Below are positions 12,940 to 63,918 of a stretch of DNA of 64,000 nt, one piece after another. Below the pieces are notes generated by a model, which saw nothing but the letters and a program-made list of their open reading frames with translations, did no database searches and had not been told where the DNA came from. Positions within the stretch are counted from its first letter, which is position 1. Each line of letters opens with the position of its first letter. The translations under genes were made by a program, and so were the position numbers. This stretch comes from Candidatus Kryptoniota bacterium. Lineage in GTDB: Bacteria; Bacteroidota; Ignavibacteria; Kryptoniales; JAKASW01. The stretch is taken from positions 20,007 through 84,006 of the forward strand of contig JBJKQU010000061.1 in NCBI GenBank assembly GCA_046705025.1, given 5' to 3'.

Positions 12940-14205
12940 TTACGTCTTCTGCGGTTTCCTCTGTGCTGCCGGGAACAGGATGTTGTTGAGTATCAGCCTG
13001 TACCCGGGGGAATTCTTGTGAAGTGAAAGGTCGGTCGGTGGATCACCGACAAGATGCTCGTATGCCGCCGGATCGTGCCCGCCGAGAAAAGTCCATGTTC
13101 CCTTCCCGTAGTCGCCGTGAATATATTTGACTTCCTGCGTCCCTTCCTTCTGACCCATTATTATGACATCGGGCTTGATCAGGCTTTTCCTGAAAGAAGT
13201 CGTCTGCCCCATGAAGTTGTGAATCACGTTGACCTGATCCTGAGTGAGCATCGTCGGCACCGGATCATACTTTGCGGAGAACTTGAAAAGGGTAAAATAG
13301 TCGGTGGACGGGTCCCGGAACTGCACCATATCGTTCGGCGGATCGTTGATATTAGAGAAGCCGTAAACATACGGGTTTTCGATGATTTTGAAATTCTGGA
13401 ACGCCAGACAGTTCGCGTAATCGAGTTTCTCCTGTGCGTGCGGGTCCGGAGGATCGCCGTCGAATACCGCGTCGCATATGTCCACGTGCTGAGCAGCGAG
13501 CGCGATATCGAGCGTCTCGGTCGCGGAGCACATCGCAAATAAGAAGCCTCCCCGTCCTACATATTGCTTTATAGCTTCGGCGACAGCCTTCTTCTCGTCC
13601 GATACCTTCTTGAATCCCATCTTGTGTGCTTCCTTCTCATCCATCGCAACTTCCTGCTGGTACCAGGGGGCATTACGGAAAGTACCGTAGAACTTTCCGT
13701 ACTGCCCTGTGAAGTCCTCATGGTGAAGATGAAGCCAGTCATATTTGGAAAGCTTCCCCTCAAGCACTTGCGTGTCCCACACCTGGGTGAAGGGAATCTG
13801 GGCATAGTTCAGTGCCAGCGTGACCGCGTCGTCCCATGGCCGGTAGTTTGGTGGAATGTACACCGCAATCTTGGGCGCCTTTTCCAGCCGGACGACATCC
13901 ATGTTATTGTCCGCATTCTGAACGCTAGCGTAGATCTGTGCAGCCTGGGCAGCCGACAACTCGTCGAATGCCACGCCGCGTATCCTGCACTGGGTGGCAA
14001 GGACACTGTTATAGTCCATCATGAACGAACCTCCGCGATAGTTCAGCAGCCAATCGACGTCGATTCCATGTCCCAAAGCATAGTAAGCTACCCCGTATGC
14101 CTTCAGGTCGTTGGTCTGCTTGAGGTCCATATATATAAACAGTTTGCTCTGAGCGAACGCGGTCGATGCAAACAAAACCAATATCATTAGAACAAGCTTC
14201 TTCAT
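12940..14205 (-). CDS. secreted protein of unknown function with a possible class-I glutamine-amidotransferase-like nucleophile elbow
   Basis: 421-aa ORF with a signal peptide (MKKLVLMILVLFASTAFAQ). The motif GRGGFLFAMCSATE resembles a GATase1/DJ-1-type Cys elbow. The family assignment is uncertain. Confidence 0.45.
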   Translation of the reverse strand: MKKLVLMILVLFASTAFAQSKLFIYMDLKQTNDLKAYGVAYYALGHGIDVDWLLNYRGGSFMMDYNSVLATQCRIRGVAFDELSAAQAAQIYASVQNADNNMDVVRLEKAPKIAVYIPPNYRPWDDAVTLALNYAQIPFTQVWDTQVLEGKLSKYDWLHLHHEDFTGQYGKFYGTFRNAPWYQQEVAMDEKEAHKMGFKKVSDEKKAVAEAIKQYVGRGGFLFAMCSATETLDIALAAQHVDICDAVFDGDPPDPHAQEKLDYANCLAFQNFKIIENPYVYGFSNINDPPNDMVQFRDPSTDYFTLFKFSAKYDPVPTMLTQDQVNVIHNFMGQTTSFRKSLIKPDVIIMGQKEGTQEVKYIHGDYGKGTWTFLGGHDPAAYEHLVGDPPTDLSLHKNSPGYRLILNNILFPAAQRKPQKT

Positions 14206-14214
14206 CGTATCTCC

Positions 14215-16056
14215 TTATGAGCCATTGCCAAGCAGCTCTCTGATAATTTCGCGCACTCTGTCCTGTAAGATCGAGTTGGGAAAGCGCGCAAGGAAACTCT
14301 CGTACTCATCGACAGCCTTCGTCTTCTCATGCAGAGTCTCCTGGTAAATCCTGCAGATCCTGAACTGTGCTCTGTCCGCAAATATCCCCGTGCTGTCCGA
14401 GGCCAGTTCCGAATAGTATTTAAGCGACTTGTCGACCTCTCCCATTTTGCAGTAGGCTCCGGCAAGATCGAACCGCGCGTTGTCAGCAAGAGGGACGCCC
14501 GGAGAATCCTTGAGGATTTCTTCCCACTCTGCTGCAGCTTCCGGGACGCGGTTAGAAACGTTCATAGCGTCGGCAGCCGCGTAGCTCTTCAGTGCTGAAG
14601 GATTGCCCCTGTTGTCCGTTATCAGATTGGAAAGCTCTATTGCCTCGTTTGCCGCATCGGACATCGGATTTGAAGTGATGCGGTGGAGGTAGTACATCGA
14701 ACTGTCGTATAACCCCATATAATAAAGAGCACGGGCGGCCTGGTATTGGATCCGATCATAATAGCCGTCGTTTTTCTCGGTACTTGTAGTCAATGCCCGC
14801 TGTGCACTATTCAGGGCATCGTTAAACCTACCTTCCATAGTGTATAGCTCCGCACGGGTGAGGATTACCTCGTACCGATTTGCCGCAAGGACACCTTCGT
14901 ATTGTGAAAGCAGCCTCTCGGCGCTGCTAAAGTCGTGAAAGTAATTCATCTCGATTTCGACTGAACTGAGCACCGCTTCGCTCACATACGGAGATTTTGA
15001 ATACCTGTTTATGATGTCCTGGTAGGCAGCGAAAGAAGCGCTCAGGTCTTTAAGCGTATCATCCGTTGCGCACGGCCGCTCATCTTCCGTGTAAACCTGT
15101 TCGCCCAGAGCGCGAAGCGAACGTGCATATCCTGCCAGAGCCTGCGCTACGATGGCATCATTCTTCGACAGGTTCATTACTTCATGGTACGCGTCGGCCG
15201 CGGGATGGTACCCTCCGTTCGCATAAGCCTGGTCTGCAAACGCCAAAAGCTCTCCCCCTTTGGATCCGGAGCGCTCGTCCAGCCACTTGTACTCATCGTA
15301 GGCCGCGGGATAGTTCTTTTGCAGCATGTACAAGAAAGCAAGTATCTGCCTGTAATCTACATTCCCGGTATTCTTCCTTACCTCATTCTCCATTTGGCCA
15401 GTGAATTGCGCGATTGCCTGTTTGCTGGTGCCGAAAGAGCCGAGCTGATATTGTATATATGCCATCGCGGACGGCTTGTTCTCATACTTGAGCAACTTCA
15501 AAATCTCGCTGAGCGATTTTGAATAGCTCATATCCATGAAATACAGCTGCGCTATCTGTCTGATGAATGTCGCCTTCGAGTTTGTCAGGCTCTCGCCCTT
15601 TCTGTACACTTCGATGGCCCTGTCAAAGAGTCGGTCGTTCAGCATAACGTCGGCGACGGCCCGGTATACGTTCGGGTCCTTCGGATTCACAGCAATGGCC
15701 CTGTTCCATGCTATCGTTGCCGAATCGGATGAACCTCCTTTGTAAAACGCATCCCCGAGCTGGCAGAGAAGGACAACGTTGTTCGGTTCGCTTTTCAGCC
15801 TGTTTTCGATAAGCTGCTCTGCCTCCGGGTATTTTTTCAGGTACATGTAGACTCGCTTCAGGCCGTCGAAGTACACAAAGTTGTTGGGGGCGATCTTATG
15901 AAGCTGCTCGTAAAAGCCGAGAGCCTTTTCATACTCCCCCGCCTGTTCGAGTGCCTCAGCGATCCTGTATTTATTCAGCTCGTCGGCAGTTTGTGAAAAC
16001 GCCGGCCGCGCAAGGCATACAGCGACTATCATCAATCCGAGATAGTATCTCTTCAT
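14215..16056 (-). CDS. tetratricopeptide repeat protein (secreted)
   Basis: 613-aa ORF with a signal peptide and many TPR-like A..Y...G.Y..A units along its whole length. Confidence 0.8.
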   Translation of the reverse strand: MKRYYLGLMIVAVCLARPAFSQTADELNKYRIAEALEQAGEYEKALGFYEQLHKIAPNNFVYFDGLKRVYMYLKKYPEAEQLIENRLKSEPNNVVLLCQLGDAFYKGGSSDSATIAWNRAIAVNPKDPNVYRAVADVMLNDRLFDRAIEVYRKGESLTNSKATFIRQIAQLYFMDMSYSKSLSEILKLLKYENKPSAMAYIQYQLGSFGTSKQAIAQFTGQMENEVRKNTGNVDYRQILAFLYMLQKNYPAAYDEYKWLDERSGSKGGELLAFADQAYANGGYHPAADAYHEVMNLSKNDAIVAQALAGYARSLRALGEQVYTEDERPCATDDTLKDLSASFAAYQDIINRYSKSPYVSEAVLSSVEIEMNYFHDFSSAERLLSQYEGVLAANRYEVILTRAELYTMEGRFNDALNSAQRALTTSTEKNDGYYDRIQYQAARALYYMGLYDSSMYYLHRITSNPMSDAANEAIELSNLITDNRGNPSALKSYAAADAMNVSNRVPEAAAEWEEILKDSPGVPLADNARFDLAGAYCKMGEVDKSLKYYSELASDSTGIFADRAQFRICRIYQETLHEKTKAVDEYESFLARFPNSILQDRVREIIRELLGNGS

Positions 16057-16154
16057 GATTCGAAAATACTTTTGTGGTTGGTTATTAACAATGAATCAGA
16101 ATTTACCGGAAATCCCCGGAAGAGGATTGGAATATCTTTCCCCTTCCCGGCCGC

Positions 16155-17831
16155 TTACTTCAGGTCGTCTTCGTAAAACTCAGATTTGCCCTTTAATTCC
16201 TTGTTGACTTCCTGAGAGCGAAGCTGGACCCGCCTGATCTTTCCGGAAATCGTTTTCGGAAGGTCCTGCACGAATTCCATCTTCCTCACACGCTTGAATG
16301 CCGCGACTTTATCCTTCACAAATGTGAATATTTCCTTCGCGGTTTTCTGGGACGGTTCGAAGCCGGGAGCGAGAATCACGTATGCCTTCGGCACAAATCC
16401 GCGGATCGGATCAGGCGACGGAATCACCGCTGCTTCAGCGACCGCCGGCGATTCGATAAGTGCGCTCTCGATTTCGAACGGGCTTATACGATAGTCGGAA
16501 CTCTTGAACACATCATCCGCTCTACCGACAAACCAGAAATATCCTTCCTGATCGCGCGTCGCTACGTCTCCCGTTCTGTAATAGCCTCCCGACATGACCG
16601 TCCTGGTTTTCGCCACGTCGTCGGCGTAGTTTATCATCAATCCCATCGGCCGCGGATTCAGTTTAATTACAACTTCGCCTTCATCGGACTCCATGCCGTC
16701 ACCGTCCAGGAGTTCGATGCGGTATCCCGGCGCCGGGCGCCCCATCGCTCCAAGCTTCACGATGGAACCGGGCATGTTGCCGACCTGCAGTGTGGTCTCT
16801 GTCTGGCCGTATCCGTCTCTGATTGTAATTCCCCAGTCTGCCCTTACCTTCGTTATGACTTCCGGATTCAGGGGTTCCCCCGCACTCACCAACTCGCGCA
16901 GAGCCTCGGGTTTGGGCTTGATATCCTCAAGCACCAGCATCCTCCATACCGTAGGCGGGGCGCACAACGTGTTCACCCCGTACTTCCTGAGAATTGCAAG
17001 AAGCGCTTTGGGAACAAACCTGGAGTACTTATAAACGAAAATGCCGGCACCCGCATTCCAGGGGGCAAAGAACGAGCTCCAGGCGTGCTTCGCCCATCCC
17101 GGCGAGCTTATGTTGAGGTGCAGGTCGTCCTCCTTCAGGCCGACCCAATACATGGTGGAAAGATGCCCTATCGGGTATGAGCCGTTCGTATGAAGCACCA
17201 TTTTCGGCTGCGCTGTAGTACCGGAAGTGAAATAGAGAAAAAGCGAGTCGGTGATCTTCGTCTGCACTTCGGGCTTGTATGCTACCAAAGAGTTGTACGA
17301 GTCTTCGTATGATACCCAGCCTTCATGTTTTCCTCCCACGACCACCTTCACGAAGTTGCCTTCGACACCCTGGAATTTCTCAACGTTATCCTGCAGTGAA
17401 ACAACCAGCTTGACCCTTCCCCTTCTGACCCGGTCCTGTATATCATTCCTGGTAAGAAGCAACGACGAAGGTATTAGGACGGCACCGAGTTTCATAGCTG
17501 CGAGCATGACCTCCCACAGCTCCGGCTGGTTGTCGAGCATCAGGAGTACTCTGCTCCCGCGATTGATACCCAGTCGCCTGAAGAAATTTGCCACTCTGCT
17601 AGACCTCTCCGACAGCTCCGCAAACGAGTACTTCCACTCACTTCCTTTCTCATCAACGATCCAGAGTGCCGGCCGGTCGTTGCCCTCGGCATAATGGTCG
17701 AAGTAATCGATCGCCCAGTTGAAGTCTTCTATCTCCGGCCACTTGAATCCGTAATAGGCCGACTCATAATCGTCCCGCCTCGTTTGGAGGAAGTCGCGTG
17801 CTTTAAGAAACTTATCAAGCTCGGCTGTCAT
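16155..17831 (-). CDS. AMP-forming acyl-CoA synthetase (medium-chain/ACSM-like)
   Basis: 558-aa ORF with adenylate-forming motifs: YFTSGTTAQPK, DGYGQTETT, YYRTGD and PKTISGKIRR. Confidence 0.9.
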   Translation of the reverse strand: MTAELDKFLKARDFLQTRRDDYESAYYGFKWPEIEDFNWAIDYFDHYAEGNDRPALWIVDEKGSEWKYSFAELSERSSRVANFFRRLGINRGSRVLLMLDNQPELWEVMLAAMKLGAVLIPSSLLLTRNDIQDRVRRGRVKLVVSLQDNVEKFQGVEGNFVKVVVGGKHEGWVSYEDSYNSLVAYKPEVQTKITDSLFLYFTSGTTAQPKMVLHTNGSYPIGHLSTMYWVGLKEDDLHLNISSPGWAKHAWSSFFAPWNAGAGIFVYKYSRFVPKALLAILRKYGVNTLCAPPTVWRMLVLEDIKPKPEALRELVSAGEPLNPEVITKVRADWGITIRDGYGQTETTLQVGNMPGSIVKLGAMGRPAPGYRIELLDGDGMESDEGEVVIKLNPRPMGLMINYADDVAKTRTVMSGGYYRTGDVATRDQEGYFWFVGRADDVFKSSDYRISPFEIESALIESPAVAEAAVIPSPDPIRGFVPKAYVILAPGFEPSQKTAKEIFTFVKDKVAAFKRVRKMEFVQDLPKTISGKIRRVQLRSQEVNKELKGKSEFYEDDLK

Positions 17832-49671: not shown

Positions 49672-50216
49672 TTTGTTCAAATTGCGGGTTTACTAGCGCG
49701 AATGATTTCTCGCGTTGTCCGCATTGCGGGTCGGAGGTTGTACCATCCGGGCGGTGCGGCAACTGCGGGGAACTGATTGATGCCGAGGCATATCTATATT
49801 GCAGCAAATGCGGGGCAATAAACGAAGAAAAGGCATCGGATGAAGGGATTGTTTGCGACACTCACCTGGAGAACCGCGCTATAGGGTTCTGCGTAGTTTG
49901 CGGCAAAGCAGTATGCGATGAGTGCGCGGAAAACCTTGGCAACAGAATTTTGTGCGACGATCCGGCGCACCGGCAGTACCTGACCAAGTGGAAGGTTCTA
50001 CGCACCTTCGACTTCGAGTACGAGGCCGCCATGCTTTATGCCAATCTTGAGCAGCAAGGGATAGAGACCCAGGTATTCACCAAACTGAATCCCGATTCTG
50101 CCGAGGCACCGGTGCGGCCGACGATCGTCGAGATCTTGGTTCGCGACGAGAAACTCGCGGAGGCAAAAGATATTTTGAAATCGCTCGGACTTTGGGACGA
50201 GGAGAACGAATTCTGA
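49668..50216 (+). CDS. zinc-ribbon / B-box-like protein with C-terminal DUF2007-like domain
   Basis: 182-aa ORF with three CxxC pairs at the N-terminus and CDTH...C..CGKAVCDEC. The C-terminal alpha/beta module (YEAAMLYANLEQQGIE) resembles DUF2007. Confidence 0.5.
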   Translation: MICSNCGFTSANDFSRCPHCGSEVVPSGRCGNCGELIDAEAYLYCSKCGAINEEKASDEGIVCDTHLENRAIGFCVVCGKAVCDECAENLGNRILCDDPAHRQYLTKWKVLRTFDFEYEAAMLYANLEQQGIETQVFTKLNPDSAEAPVRPTIVEILVRDEKLAEAKDILKSLGLWDEENEF

Positions 50217-51052
50217 TGTCCAATCTGGCCGCCCGTGTCCTGGTAGCCGTAATCGCGATACCGTTGATCGTCGCCGCTTGCTACTTCGGAGGTCCATTTT
50301 TCTTCGTCTTCACGACTGCAATAATCATCCTCGCGGCCAACGAATTCTACTATCTCGCGAGAAAGAAGAACATTGAGCCTGCTGCCGTCGTCGGGATAGT
50401 ATCGGCGGCAATATTGAATGCAGTCGTATACTCTGCGGGAATGGATGCGGCCTTCGAGTTCCTCATTCTGATAGTCGCATTCGTGCTGCTGTGGGAACTC
50501 GCCAGGCGCCGGACCGAAAAGGTGACGGGCACCTTCGAAAACACCGGGACCACGCTCGCCGGCATTGTTTACATCGGGCTGTTCGGCTCGATGCTGACCG
50601 CAATACGCGAAAGAGTCGGACTTCAGAGCGTCCTCCCGAACGATCGGGATGCCGGACTGTTCATCATAGCGATACTCGCTTCGATATGGATTTGTGATTC
50701 TGCGGCATACTTCGTCGGCAGGGCAACCGGGAGACATAAGATGAGCAAGTTCGTGAGTCCCAACAAAACCTGGGAGGGCGGAATTGCCGGATTTATTTTC
50801 GCGGTTGCGACTGCCGTAGCAGCGAAGTACGCGGCCATACCTGATCTGAGCTTGAGAACGGCCGTCTTCATGGGAGTCATTGTCGGCGTGTTCGGGCAAT
50901 CCGGGGATTTCGTCGAGTCGATGTTCAAGAGAGACGCCGGCCTCAAAGACTCCTCCAATCTGATACCGGGTCACGGTGGTGTTTTCGACAGGTTTGACAG
51001 CCTGCTGTTCTCGGCCCCCCTGATTTACCTGATGCTGAAGCACCTCAGGTAG
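50216..51052 (+). CDS. cdsA: phosphatidate cytidylyltransferase
   Basis: The start is in a TGATG overlap with the upstream stop. The protein is polytopic and carries the C-terminal signature SMFKRDAGLKDSSNLIPGHGGVFDRFDS. Confidence 0.88.
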   Translation: MSNLAARVLVAVIAIPLIVAACYFGGPFFFVFTTAIIILAANEFYYLARKKNIEPAAVVGIVSAAILNAVVYSAGMDAAFEFLILIVAFVLLWELARRRTEKVTGTFENTGTTLAGIVYIGLFGSMLTAIRERVGLQSVLPNDRDAGLFIIAILASIWICDSAAYFVGRATGRHKMSKFVSPNKTWEGGIAGFIFAVATAVAAKYAAIPDLSLRTAVFMGVIVGVFGQSGDFVESMFKRDAGLKDSSNLIPGHGGVFDRFDSLLFSAPLIYLMLKHLR

Positions 51053-59907: not shown

Positions 59908-60315
59908 TCATTTGCTGTTCGGAAGGCCGCGGCTTTCTTCAGCATCTAAAGCCGTTTCCCATCCATCGTAGTCTCCACCGAATTTGCGGGCCAACAGCTC
60001 GAAAGTTATCCTGAACGAAGTCAGTTCACCAACTCGTGGAACAATGTCCTTTGTGGCCAGACAAAGCCAGCTTGTACTAGAAACGGCTTTCGTGCATTCT
60101 ACTGAAAAACCCAGTCCTTTCAGCTCGCCTCTTGCTTCCAGGGCGGAGCTCCTGGACGGTAAATACAGATAGAAACTGATCGCTCTCGGTCTGGTCAGAT
60201 CAGCGCTGCTCTTACTCAACAAGTCCAGAACAGCTTGATCGGGATTCTTCACACGGAGATCTTTCTTCGGCTTATCCGAAAGTCTCCTGCTATGACTCGG
60301 TTTGCTATTTCGCAT
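59908..60315 (-). CDS. RraB-like (regulator of ribonuclease activity B family) protein
   Basis: The ATG at 60315 is preceded by AAGGAGGG. The C-terminal FGGDYDGWET and the block PRAISFYLYLPS...A......L...GF resemble RraB/DUF1260. The ORF-track N-terminal extension is trimmed. Confidence 0.5.
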   Translation of the reverse strand: MRNSKPSHSRRLSDKPKKDLRVKNPDQAVLDLLSKSSADLTRPRAISFYLYLPSRSSALEARGELKGLGFSVECTKAVSSTSWLCLATKDIVPRVGELTSFRITFELLARKFGGDYDGWETALDAEESRGLPNSK

Positions 60316-60373
60316 GCCCTTTTCCCTCCTTAGCCCCGTACCCGCTCCACGCCGGGGTTCTACCGCCGGAGCC

Positions 60374-60931
60374 TTATTTTGCGGATTCGTAGTAGAATAA
60401 CACATTTCCCGATTTGAAACATTCGGCTCTCAAGAACTTCAGCTCCAGCTTCCTGCCTATTCCCGCAAACGGTTGTCTTGCAGTGCCTAACACGACAGGA
60501 CACACCATCATCCGGCACTCATCGATCAGGCCCTGAGAGATCAGACTGCCGGCCAGAATGCAGTTTCCGAACATCCCTATCTCCTTTCCCTATTGCCGCT
60601 TAACCTTTAGCACCTCCTCATCGGCATTCCCTTTAACGAGCCGGGTCTAGTTCCATTCCACCTTGTCCAGAGTCCTTGAGAAGACGATTTTCGCAACCGA
60701 GTTCATCAAACCGGCGACTACCGGGTCGTTTTTGATCGCTTCCGGCGTCGGCCAGTAACCTGCCATCAGCTCGTAAGTTGCCCTTCTGAACAACAAGGTG
60801 CCGGTTTCATTCAACTGTCCGATTGCACATTCGTTGAACTCGTCGTCGACGTTATGCCAGATGATATCGTGGTCGGGTCCTTCGAAGAAGCCATCGACCG
60901 TTATCATGTCGAACAGGAAAACCTTCCGCAT
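60374..60931 (-). pseudogene. RibD_C/dihydrofolate-reductase-family gene interrupted by two in-frame TAG codons (tandem paralog of 60936-61493)
   Basis: ORFs 60647..61000 and 60374..60574 are in the same frame. The continuous reading is ...KVEWN*TRLVKGNADEEVLKVKRQ*GKEIGMFGNCILAGS..., with TAG at 60649-60647 and 60592-60590. It spans 185 codons and is collinear without indels with the 185-aa neighbour. Confidence 0.7.
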
Positions 60932-60935
60932 TCTT

Positions 60936-61493
60936 CTACTCTCTTTCCTTCTCGTAATGAAGTGCCACCATGCCCGACTTGAATGTTCTCGTCTCAACAA
61001 GTGTCAGGTTAATTCTGTCGGTCAAACCTTCAAACAGCCGTCTTCCTTTTCCGACGACGACGGGGTGCACCACCAGCCAATACTCGTCGATCAATCCGGC
61101 TTTCATCAGCTGACGGATAACGCTTATCCCGCCGATTGACAGATCTTTGCCGTCTTGTTGTTTCAACTTTCTGACGGCCTCAACGATGTCGTCGCGGATC
61201 AGAGTGGTGTTGTTCCAGTCGGCGCTCCCGAGTGTTCTAGAGAATACCATTTTTGGTATGGCGTTGAACTTAACTGCAAATTCGCGCACGCTCTTTGTTG
61301 TAGAAGGATCATTTGAAATTTTGGGCCAGGCGTGCGCCATCAGCTCGTACGTCACCCGCCCGAAGAGTGCGATGCCGGTGTTGTCGAGCAGCCCGCTGAA
61401 GAACTCGTGATGCTCATCGTCTGGGGCGACGGCGACCGTGTGGTCGGCGAAGCCGTCGAGAGATACATTTATTGCTAAGACTAGTTTTCTCAT
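60936..61493 (-). CDS. dihydrofolate reductase family protein (RibD C-terminal domain, YwjB-like)
   Basis: 185-aa ORF with MRKLVLAINVSLDGF, LFGRVTYELM, VFSRTL and GLIDEYWLVVHPVVVGKGRRLF. Confidence 0.85.
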   Translation of the reverse strand: MRKLVLAINVSLDGFADHTVAVAPDDEHHEFFSGLLDNTGIALFGRVTYELMAHAWPKISNDPSTTKSVREFAVKFNAIPKMVFSRTLGSADWNNTTLIRDDIVEAVRKLKQQDGKDLSIGGISVIRQLMKAGLIDEYWLVVHPVVVGKGRRLFEGLTDRINLTLVETRTFKSGMVALHYEKERE

Positions 61494-61511
61494 TTGTCGA
61501 TCCTTTCTGGA

Positions 61512-61943
61512 TCACTTTTGTTTCGGATACGTGTAGTTGATCATCCACCTGGTTCCATACTTATCGGTAAACATGCCGAAGTAGGCTCCCCAGAACTCAT
61601 CATGGATAGGCGTCTCAATTTTACCGTCAACGGAAAGTTTGTCGTACAATCTTTTCGCTTCGTCCTTGCTGTCGGCTTCAATCGAGATATTATAATTATT
61701 GCCGAACGTTAATTGTTGTCCCATGGATTCGAGCGCGTCGGTACCCATAAGCACGTTTCCCTTTCCAATCGGCAAAGCGACGTGCATGATTTTCTCTTTT
61801 TCCTTTGCTGGTACTCTGTCCGCGACAGGAGTCTCACCGAATCGCTGTATCGCGGTGAACTCCCCGCCGAAAACGGACTTGTAACAGTTGAACGCTTCCT
61901 CGGTGGTGCCGGGAAGATTTATGTACGGATTCATTGTGGCCAT
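61512..61943 (-). CDS. VOC (glyoxalase/PhnB-like) family protein
   Basis: 143-aa ORF with the pattern NPYINL.G...EAF.FYKSVFGGEF...MH..L.....LMG.D...........F.I....D..E....Y..L, typical of PhnB-like VOC proteins. Confidence 0.85.
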   Translation of the reverse strand: MATMNPYINLPGTTEEAFNCYKSVFGGEFTAIQRFGETPVADRVPAKEKEKIMHVALPIGKGNVLMGTDALESMGQQLTFGNNYNISIEADSKDEAKRLYDKLSVDGKIETPIHDEFWGAYFGMFTDKYGTRWMINYTYPKQK

Positions 61944-61979
61944 CTTTCTAATACCTCCTATTTTAACTAATCATGCCTT

Positions 61980-62220
61980 TTCGAAATACTAAATTCGAAA
62001 TCCTAAACTCTAAATGCCGCCTTGTCCGAAGGACGCCTTCGGCGCGGTATCCCGACACATAAATATTTTTGACGGGACAAATCCCAAATTCAAAACTCAA
62101 AACGTAAAAACGAAGCCGGCTGCATTTAGAATTTGTGGCGCTCAACTTCCAATAGTACGTATATGCGCCATGGCACAGGGCGCTCATTTAGAATTTAGAG
62201 TTTAGTGCTTAGAATTTTCT
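61980..62220. repeat. intergenic inverted-heptamer repeat element, copy A (left CTAAA-heptamer arm, copy-specific insert with GC hairpin, A-rich spacer, GC palindromic core, right TTTAG-heptamer arm)
   Basis: The left arm is TTCGAAA TACTAAA TTCGAAA TCCTAAA CTCTAAA (61980-62014). The right arm is TTTAGAA TTTAGAG TTTAGTG CTTAGAA (62187-62214). Segment 62129-62220 aligns gap-free to 63379-63470 with about 80/92 identities by my manual count. Confidence 0.8.
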
Positions 62221-62240
62221 CCCTGGTCTCTAGGCCCATT

Positions 62241-62735
62241 TCATTTGCCATCAAACGCCTTTTCCAGCGCGGCGATATCGAACTTCTTCATCTTCAGAAA
62301 AGCTTCAGTCACTCGCTCGACCTTCTTCGGGTCTTTGTCTTTCTGCATTTTTCTCAGGATCGTTGGGACTATCTGCCATGAAATCCCGTACTTGTCCTTG
62401 AGCCATCCGCACTGTTCGGCTTTCGGATCGGCGGACAGTTTCCCCCAGTAGTAATCGATCTCCTCCTGTGTTTCACACGCCACGGCGAAGGAAATAGATT
62501 CGTTGAACTTGAAGAATGGCCCTGCGCTCATGAACGTAAATTCCTGGCCGAGAAGCTCGACGGTAACGATCTCTACGGTTCCAGATGGCGTGTTGGGAAG
62601 AGTTCTCGATTCTTTGATCTTCGATCCTTTTTCGCCAGAGGTGGATCCACCTCCGGCGGAGAACACGGAAATGTAGAACTTCGCCGCTTCAGCAGCTTCT
62701 TTGTCGAACCACAGGAACGGTGTTATCGATTTCAT
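62241..62735 (-). CDS. VOC family protein (PhnB / 3-demethylubiquinone-9 3-methyltransferase-domain type)
   Basis: The start at MKSITPFLWFDKEAAEAAKFYISVF is the typical N-terminus, with AAGGAGG upstream. The protein is 164 aa with C-terminal CGWLKDKYGISWQIVP. The ORF-track 24-codon extension is repeat-derived and trimmed. Confidence 0.85.
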   Translation of the reverse strand: MKSITPFLWFDKEAAEAAKFYISVFSAGGGSTSGEKGSKIKESRTLPNTPSGTVEIVTVELLGQEFTFMSAGPFFKFNESISFAVACETQEEIDYYWGKLSADPKAEQCGWLKDKYGISWQIVPTILRKMQKDKDPKKVERVTEAFLKMKKFDIAALEKAFDGK

Positions 62736-62773
62736 AGCAACCTCCTTTATCATCAATCCGAGAAACTGTTTCC

Positions 62774-62820
62774 TTTGAAACTCCAACCGCGAAATCCTAA
62801 ACTCCAAACGAATTCAAAAC
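62774..62820. repeat. degenerate partial copy (left-arm heptamers only) of the repeat element, copy C
   Basis: TTTGAAA CTCCAAC CGCGAAA TCCTAAA CTCCAAA followed by an A-rich AATTCAAAAC. It shares CGAAATCCTAAACTC with copies A and B. Confidence 0.5.
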
Positions 62821-62839
62821 GTCGGGGTACCTGCGATTC

Positions 62840-63250
62840 TCAACCTCTTTTTGATTTTGAACGTCGCTGCTCGCTTTCATCAATCATCGCGCTCAGATCC
62901 GCAGCCGGCCTGATCTCCCAGCTTCCTCCTCCTCTACCTAGGGCAAGGGAAGGATGATTCGACATCAACTGAATCGCATGGTTCAGGTCGTCGGCCCCTA
63001 ATATCATGATCCCGCCGATTTGCTCTTTTGTCTCCGCAAACGGGCCGTCGATCACGGAGACTCTTCCGTTCTGGATCCGCAAAGTAGCCGCATTCGTTCC
63101 CGGTTGAAGGGCCTCGCCGCCGGCATAGTGGCCGGTTCTTTTCAACGCCTCGTCGTACGTAAAACATTTATCCACGAAATTGTTCCGTTCGATCTCGGAG
63201 AAGTTCGCGAATATGTCTTCGTTCATGTATCCAAGACAAATGTATTTCAT
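62840..63250 (-). CDS. YciI family protein
   Basis: The start at MKYICLGYM has AGGAGA upstream. The protein is 136 aa with the DGPFAETKEQIGG core. The ORF-track extension is trimmed. Confidence 0.85.
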   Translation of the reverse strand: MKYICLGYMNEDIFANFSEIERNNFVDKCFTYDEALKRTGHYAGGEALQPGTNAATLRIQNGRVSVIDGPFAETKEQIGGIMILGADDLNHAIQLMSNHPSLALGRGGGSWEIRPAADLSAMIDESEQRRSKSKRG

Positions 63251-63280
63251 TTCAGTCTCCTGTTGTGTTCCACTCAACGT

Positions 63281-63470
63281 GTGAAACTCTAAATCCGAAA
63301 TCCTAAACTCTAAACAATATCAAAAATCAAAACCAAAAACTTCAAAACTGCTTTCGAGATTTTCAGAATTTGTATTTTGAATTTGTGGCGCTCTACTGTT
63401 AAAACTGTGTATATGCGCCATGGCGCACAGCGCTCATTTAGAATTTAGGGTTTAGTGCTTAGAATTTTCT
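63281..63470. repeat. intergenic inverted-heptamer repeat element, copy B
   Basis: The left arm is CTCTAAA TCCGAAA TCCTAAA CTCTAAA (63287-63314), followed by a 7-nt phased A-run spacer. The core contains the perfect palindrome GCGCCATGGCGC (63415-63426). The right arm is TTTAGAA TTTAGGG TTTAGTG CTTAGAA (63437-63464). Confidence 0.8.
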
Positions 63471-63918
63471 TCCGGTGTTTCTCAATCGCTTCTTGTACCA
63501 CCTTACTCTCTCCTGCTTCTCGGACCTCAGGAGGCATCTCGGACCAATCGAATATTTGCCGAACTTCGATCGTGGCGCCGGAATCGACTGTCACAGCCGG
63601 ACAACGCTTCGCCCATTCGACGGCTTCTTCCTTCGACTTCACATCGATCAGCCAGTAACCGCCGACCACTTCTTTCGCTTCGACGAACGGGCCATCCGTT
63701 ACAGTCGTCTTCCCGTTCTTGAATGTGACCCTTGCCCCCATCGTCAGCGGATGAAGCCCGTCCAACGAAACGAGTATTCCGGCTTTGGCCATTTCCTCGT
63801 TCTACTTCATCATCTCGGCGACGGCCTCCTTCGGCGGCGCGAAATTCTCATCCGCTTTCTGCTTCGACGACGAATTCGGCTGATACTCCGGCGGAATCAT
63901 AAATATCATGTATTTCAT
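63445..63918 (-). pseudogene. YciI family gene with a single in-frame TAG at codon 39 (or a read-through/recoded gene). A 115-aa ORF restarts 3 codons later.
   Basis: My manual translation starts from the ATG at 63918, with AGGAGG 8 nt upstream. It reads MKYMIFMIPPEYQPNSSSKQKADENFAPPKEAVAEMMK*NEEMAKAGILVSLDG..., and the TAG lies at 63804-63802. It continues in frame into ORF 63445..63792 with DGPFVEAKEVVGGYWLIDVKSKEEAVEWAKRCP. Confidence 0.65.

Follow-up and report, generated by a model that had tools for sequence, protein, structure and literature searches.

Does a gene whose frame runs to its native stop codon through two in-frame TAG codons still give a full-length protein, or has it been inactivated? 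This question is raised by a DHFR-like gene on the minus strand of the window (the whole stretch of 64,000 nucleotides that was analysed). The original prediction considered three answers: a very recent inactivation of a redundant copy, an assembly or strain polymorphism, and conditional TAG read-through. With high confidence, we interpret the locus as a true nonsense pseudogene whose intact form would encode a putative NADPH-dependent reductase (DHFR-like; RibD_C, YyaP-type). It lies in a cluster of small chromosomal genes of a Kryptoniota-like bacterium. The codons of the orthologs, the stop codon usage of the window, the loss of invariant residues and a decay that starts at the stops together lead to the conclusion that this is an ordinary nonsense pseudogene of an already known family and that TAG recoding is unsupported. 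The features are listed in Table 1.

Table 1 Features of the interrupted RibD_C gene and its surroundings (positions in the window)
Feature	Position	Strand	Remarks
RraB-like gene	59908..60315	minus	Pfam PF06877; downstream; own AAGGAGG site
Interrupted RibD_C (DHFR-like) gene	60374..60931	minus	185 codons and TAA, two in-frame TAGs; very probably a pseudogene
5′ two-thirds, codons 1-113	60593..60931	minus	normally constrained family member save G49R and TAG95
Codon 49 AGA (Arg)	60785..60787	minus	in place of the GRxT-loop Gly that is invariant in the family; between strand 43-49 and helix 50-57
TAG at codon 95	60647..60649	minus	replaces a nearly invariant Asn (N in 113/114 proteins)
TAG at codon 114	60590..60592	minus	loop between helix 103-112 and strand 117-121 (homolog model)
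Decayed 3′ third, codons 115-185 and TAA	60374..60589	minus	changed conserved columns, rate excess
AAGGAG (60586-60581), 6 nt, ATG (60574-60572)	60572..60586	minus	heads a 66-codon ORF
S123N	60563-60565	minus	within the decayed 3′ third
N144C	60500-60502	minus	within the decayed 3′ third
G151A	60479-60481	minus	within the decayed 3′ third
Intact tandem RibD_C paralog	60936..61493	minus	185 codons; Pfam 71.4 bits
VOC/glyoxalase-family gene	61512..61943	minus	Pfam PF00903; upstream, in the same conserved small-gene cluster

The interrupted gene, its family and its tandem neighbour

Translation of the minus strand from 60931 to 60374 gave a frame of 185 codons that is interrupted by TAG at 60649-60647 (codon 95) and by TAG at 60592-60590 (codon 114), as had been predicted; there are no other in-frame stops, and the peptides quoted in the original prediction were found in this translation. 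In Pfam, the PF01872 RibD_C profile matched the interrupted gene with 48.8 bits (the cut-off is 24.1) and covered residues 3-177. The full RibD_C fold is not encoded because the frame is broken at codons 95 and 114. The identity to the best of 1784 homologs was 63-66%, and no relative with more than 66% identity was found in 5.8 billion proteins, in the GTDB species representatives (the source genome is not among them) or in JGI metagenomes. The intact neighbour is nearly as isolated, with a best identity of 72-73%. NCBIfam has no family for either RibD_C paralog, and a literature search on 8JSV and YyaP yielded nothing of use. Among solved structures, the DHFR-like enzymes 8JSV, 2GD9 (YyaP), SacH and T. 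maritima DHFR are the closest in fold. The gene shares its length and motif order with the PF01872 proteins B. subtilis YyaP (2GD9; E=2e-25) and Leptospira DHFR-like protein (8JSV), and the model of a homolog matches these two folds with TM-scores of 0.76-0.81. However, the frame is interrupted here, and the GRxT glycine, S123 and G151 are replaced.

The original prediction described the gene as perfectly collinear with its tandem neighbour. The neighbour indeed has 185 codons, and the two in-frame TAGs align with the N of WNNTT and the D of KQQDGKD in the neighbour, as was stated. The neighbour ends with a TAG of its own, 4 nt ahead of the pseudogene ATG. However, the two genes share only 43% identity, and their alignment (A1) contains five indel positions, which contradicts the collinearity. 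Because of these differences, the equal length of the two paralogs is a coincidence. The further statement that indels are absent holds against 114 members of the gene's own subfamily, with which it aligns collinearly and without gaps, but not against the neighbour.

Syntenic relatives were located with the neighbour gene as an anchor, independently of the interrupted gene. The set consists of L163-L166 (GCA_027322025.1, GCA_027455045.1 and others), L167-L169, L170, L004 and the outgroup L008 (Ignavibacteriaceae). In all of these loci, L163-L170, L004 and L008, the tandem pair is present and its downstream member is intact (183-213 aa). Since the two genes are 43% identical and the pair is conserved in related lineages, they are old paralogs; the tandem pair is thus a long-standing, conserved arrangement of two different genes, and by this comparison a recent duplication is ruled out. 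The term redundant copy is therefore misleading: an intact pair is present in every syntenic relative found. The downstream copies of the relatives contain WNNT or WSNT, and every one of them retains the second Asn, which is codon 95. They further contain QLPGKD or RLPGKD (KQNGKD in L008), FGRxTY, and FGSS (LGSG in L008). The nearest syntenic relatives retain Pro at codon 114, FGRxTY, FGSS and NPV.

The window is chromosomal: LepA, ATP synthase beta subunit, PriA, Dxs, XseA, GpsA and PlsY are encoded in it. Its LepA has 83-92% identity to proteins from MAGs that in part bear the name Candidatus Kryptonia or Kryptoniota. With the standard code, long ORFs cover 93% of the window; the interrupted gene forms the biggest ORF-free gap and is the sole broken gene. 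It belongs to a minus-strand run of small genes (YCII, YCII, 3-dmu-9_3-mt, VOC, RibD_C, interrupted RibD_C and RraB-like), and no terminator-like site was found between the members of the run on this strand. The cluster at 59908-63792, with YCII, 3-dmu-9_3-mt, VOC/glyoxalase and two distinct tandem RibD_C paralogs, recurs in shuffled order in L004, L008, L163-L170, L086 and L121, which belong to Kryptoniota-like, Ignavibacteria and other lineages. The VOC/glyoxalase gene is 82.5% identical to the copy in the syntenic locus L004. Elsewhere in the window, the minus-strand ORFs at 12940-14205 (421 aa) and 50036-51043 (335 aa) gave no Pfam match at E<=1e-5.

Invariant residues and uneven decay

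The TAGs had been described as the only lesions, with the family motifs conserved on both sides of them. Both statements are contradicted by the substitutions G49R, S123N, N144C and G151A. Residue 49 is G in 114/114 homologs, in the paralog and in PDB entries 2GD9 and 8JSV; S123 and G151 are each present in 114/114 homologs and N144 is present in 108/114. Moreover, the quoted motif TLLFRRATYELM itself holds the G-to-R change, and the quoted VCPVVLG holds the N-to-C change. In the model of a homolog (65% identity; pLDDT 94.1), G49 sits where strand 43-49 passes into helix 50-57, and G122-S123 sits where strand 117-121 passes into helix 124-132. In DHFR structures, strand-helix junction loops bind dinucleotide phosphates. 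By analogy, the GRxT and G-S loops of the RibD_C subfamily may have a phosphate-binding role. The GRxT(Y/F) glycine and the G-S loop after strand 117-121 are both altered in the interrupted gene (R49 and N123).

When columns conserved at >=98%, >=95% and >=90% were counted, the interrupted gene was changed at 5/53, 8/63 and 11/80 of them, respectively. The means for the 114 homologs are 0.4, 0.8 and 1.8 columns, and the interrupted gene exceeds every one of these homologs; the most isolated of them are changed at 2-7 columns, fewer than the interrupted gene. As a control, the neighbour was compared with its own 113 homologs and departed at 0/29, 1/43 and 1/60 columns at the same three thresholds.

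The changes are not spread evenly. Of the columns conserved at >=90%, 2/47 are changed in codons 1-94, 0/6 in codons 96-113 and 8/26 in codons 115-185 (Fisher p=0.012 for codons 115-185 versus codons 1-94). Identity to the family consensus is 0.77 for codons 1-113 (family mean 0.79) but 0.55 for codons 115-185 (mean 0.76), and this gap is the largest of 115 sequences (z=3.1). Even in comparisons with the nearest syntenic relatives, synonymous sites have reached saturation (pS 0.70-0.91). Therefore, we used amino-acid relative-rate tests and conserved-column counts instead of dN/dS; the dN/dS estimate against the paralog, which the original prediction had proposed, is hopeless at 43% identity. 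Because a ranking of homologs by similarity to the query inflates the N-terminal identities (up to 78%), it should be mentioned that the relatives in the relative-rate tests were chosen through the neighbour gene, with L008 as the outgroup, and that the asymmetry persists with these relatives. Tests of the whole gene, before it was split at the stops, were marginal (p=0.03-0.66). In codons 1-113, changes unique to the window numbered 11-15 versus 14-17 unique to the relative, whereas in codons 115-185 they numbered 14-17 versus 2-6 (p=0.0007-0.12). Similarly, dN of the 5′ part was 0.19-0.21 versus 0.19-0.20 between relatives, and that of the 3′ part was 0.29-0.41 versus 0.18-0.20. The rate excess of codons 115-185 is thus 2-8x, and the change-over is at the stops. 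Relaxed constraint is seen in codons 115-185 and is absent from codons 1-113, where 2/53 conserved columns are changed.

Two other sources of the C-terminal part were considered and rejected. Gene conversion by the adjacent paralog is contradicted by the window-specific residues, which differ from those of that paralog. In the case of import from another lineage, the best identity of codons 115-185 to any compared sequence is 58%, the best matches are the syntenic relatives, and universally conserved residues are missing.

Since only the 3′ third shows a rate excess, the 5′ two-thirds were under purifying selection for most of the time during which the 3′ third drifted. Thus, the two halves lost constraint at different times. 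Most likely, the gene was first hit at or near codon 114, and G49R and TAG95 followed recently. The part after codon 114 would have lost constraint first, probably upon TAG114, and the 5′ part only recently, through G49R and TAG95. The proposal of a very recent inactivation of a redundant copy therefore stands as to inactivation, but not as to redundancy nor, for the 3′ third, as to age: this third has lost 8/26 conserved columns and evolves with the excess described above.

Translation from 60931 would end at TAG95 and give a product of 94 residues. In the homolog model, strands 96-99, 117-121, 138-144, 164-171 and 177-183 lie behind this stop, so that the product would be without five of the ten beta-strands (the last four included) and without the second phosphate-binding loop. 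Judging from this model, it is probably unable to fold, and no reductase would be made. If any read-through product were formed, it would carry Arg at the invariant glycine of GRxT and would have neither S123 nor G151.

The locus resembles other bacterial nonsense pseudogenes in its full-length homology to intact orthologs, premature stops, loss of invariant residues, elevated rate and retained operon position. It differs from them in that there are two stops without a frameshift, and in that the decay is found only behind the stops while the 5′ two-thirds look constrained. Codons 1-113 show no rate excess, unlike a gene that is dead throughout, and this speaks against a plain death of the gene. 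The original prediction also argued that a decaying pseudogene usually shows indels. Ratios of indel to substitution mutations in bacteria are 0.10-0.36 (Sung et al. 2016, PMC4978911, Table 1). For the 3′ excess dN of 0.1-0.2, one to several indels are expected in 213 nt, but there are none in the 558 nt of the gene. The gene contains only four homopolymer runs of >=4 nt, which lowers the expectation. The argument thus has some quantitative force, and the absence of indels is mildly surprising; it is not decisive.

A split-gene reading and the independent sequence

The sharp contrast between the 5′ and 3′ parts and the newly arisen ribosome-binding site with its ATG may point to a truncated or split form that existed for a time. 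As compared with all syntenic relatives, an AAGGAG-N6-ATG element arose 18 nt past TAG114 through the changes AAA to AAG, GAT to GAG and ATC to ATG, which in part hit the conserved residues D117 (to E) and I120 (to M), conserved at 91-94%. The ORF that starts here (60374-60574; 66 codons) runs without a stop or an indel to the native TAA, and the genuine genes of the window share this type of Shine-Dalgarno sequence. Gene fission may have left this element behind, or chance may have produced it.

According to this reading, the gene was remodelled: after TAG114, the truncated N-terminal half (1-113) would have been long-lived and selected, or the gene would have persisted as a split gene (1-113 and a re-initiated 120-185), and TAG95 and G49R would have come late. 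The constraint on codons 1-113, the acceleration of codons 115-185 with its change-over at the stops, the canonical start site made by three nucleotide changes and the open 66-codon ORF are all consistent with such a history. However, S123, G151 and N144 are lost from the C-terminal part, so the ancestral role was not kept there. The C-terminal substitutions have a mean BLOSUM62 score of -0.08 versus -0.63 expected for random missense changes, and with n=13 they are not significantly more conservative. Among the window genes, the coding score of codons 1-113 is at the 76th percentile, but that of the C-terminal part is at the 13th (low-normal). In addition, the N-terminal fragment now ends at residue 94 and carries G49R, half a DHFR fold is not known to have a function of its own, and the ribosome-binding site was spotted post hoc. 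Because of the invariant losses, the unclear conservativeness and the post hoc site, we regard a selected truncated or split stage as unlikely. If true, the DHFR fold would have been split naturally within a surface loop. In engineered split DHFR, which is used for protein-fragment complementation, murine DHFR is cut near residue 105 and the fragments need fused partners. By analogy, TAG114 combined with a new start at codon 120 (ribosome-binding site and ATG) would divide the fold at a similar point, within a surface loop; the difference is that the C-terminal fragment here has lost invariant residues.

A second alternative is that the TAGs come from an error of the assembly or its consensus, or from a strain in the minority, and that most cells have an intact gene. 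The 94-aa, 117-aa, 66-aa and 46-aa fragments had exact matches in the source contig only, so that the 94-aa and 66-aa fragments are recorded solely from the source NCBI contig, and an independent Logan contig from the same population breaks at window position 60759, 110 nt before TAG95. The presence of the TAGs in a single assembly also counts against the pseudogene reading. The codons of the relatives bear on both readings. In the syntenic relatives, codon 95 is AAT or AAC, from which TAG requires at least two nucleotide changes, and codon 114 is CCC or CCG in the nearest of them, again at least two changes from TAG (AAT in L008). This distance is a further point against the pseudogene reading, and it is also difficult to explain by an artefact, which would have to make at least four substitutions. 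Moreover, about ten further conserved residues are changed alongside the TAGs, a pattern that errors do not make, and no other gene of the window is broken. The independent Logan contig agrees with the window in the first 57 codons, G49R included; codon 49 of the relatives is GGG or GGA. Because there are missense changes at invariant residues, a polymorphism or an assembly error is insufficient as an account, and we consider it very unlikely.

The Logan contigs are from SRR31309758. L001 corresponds to window 60759-62046, with 1 mismatch in 1288 nt, and ends at codon 57 of the pseudogene; L002 corresponds to window 13796-17056 and also has one mismatch. The G/C difference in L001, at 61525, replaces a Pro by Arg close to the C-terminal end of the VOC protein. 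The break of L001 could reflect low coverage or a strain-level branch.

TAG as a stop codon in the window and in homologs

The 61 non-overlapping long ORFs of the window end with TGA (25), TAA (24) and TAG (12), and those with TAG include the intact neighbour and genes at tight operon junctions. Thus, TAG is a normal terminator in the source genome and is not depleted. When TAG was read as sense, no more long ORFs were added or extended than when TAA was read as sense. Scans for tRNAs and with Rfam gave no match in the 64-kb window. Among single substitutions in the interrupted gene, 3.0-4.3% create a stop, and TAG accounts for 42-45% of these; two TAGs are therefore unremarkable by chance (prior about 0.2). 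One further stop is expected per ~27 neutral substitutions.

We compared 136 near-full-length homologous loci. Codon 95 is AAT in 89 and AAC in 43 of them (132/136). At codon 114, P, Q and S are found in 76, 16 and 12 of the 114 homologs, respectively. TAG is present at codon 95 or 114 in 0/136 loci, a result that goes against read-through in the ortholog comparison proposed by the original prediction, and 135/136 loci have no in-frame stop at all. The exception, L127, has a stop elsewhere in the gene. The sequence behind the stops is no longer maintained, which speaks against a full-length protein with a function.

Conditional TAG read-through or recoding by a suppressor tRNA or pyrrolysine, which would give a full-length functional protein, is hardly credible: although both stops are TAG, the frame is open to the native stop without indels and the tRNA search covered only 64 kb of the genome, TAG ends 12/61 ORFs, tRNA and Rfam matches are absent from the window, no homolog has TAG at either site, of which one is an invariant Asn, exactly the decayed region would be translated, G49R has removed an invariant loop glycine, and random substitution in this gene produces TAG more often than any other stop.

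In the pyrrolysine genes mtmB, mtbB and mttB (methylamine methyltransferases), orthologs share the TAG, and there is a pyl cassette. The locus resembles these genes in its in-frame TAG and otherwise open frame; it differs in that no ortholog has the TAG, TAG ends a fifth of the genes, and the sequence behind the stops has decayed. The case is a useful negative: a pair of in-frame TAGs without indels mimics recoding, yet this is an ordinary pseudogene. In itself it matters little, and only the uneven decay is of mild interest.

Several observations were made in the homologs. L127 (Ga0326726_10154824, ~632-1186) belongs to the same subfamily and has its single in-frame stop in VF*RSL, at the position of the conserved Ser85; its upstream tandem paralog also looks degenerate. 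L127 is an independent pseudogene or contains a sequencing error. In P0057, columns 115-142 of alignment A1 hold an internal tandem duplication of 28 residues, in which TTLVKDGFAAEVMKLKQQPGKDLIIFGS occurs twice. The matches in L016 and L103, one of which is a Methanoperedens MAG, are far longer than the gene, and this suggests insertions. The syntenic homolog in L004 (4189-4830; MAG MFD01299.bin.2.3) has 213 aa, with a tail of ~27 residues past the usual end of the family, and is ~1.6 kb apart from its tandem partner, which suggests a stop loss and an insertion. Finally, this RibD_C subfamily (loci L003-L162; 47-66% identity to the query) is found in Nitrospirota, Chloroflexota, Bacteroidota, Ignavibacteriota, Acidobacteriota, Spirochaetota, CPR and Methanoperedens archaea, and this very wide spread is probably horizontal.
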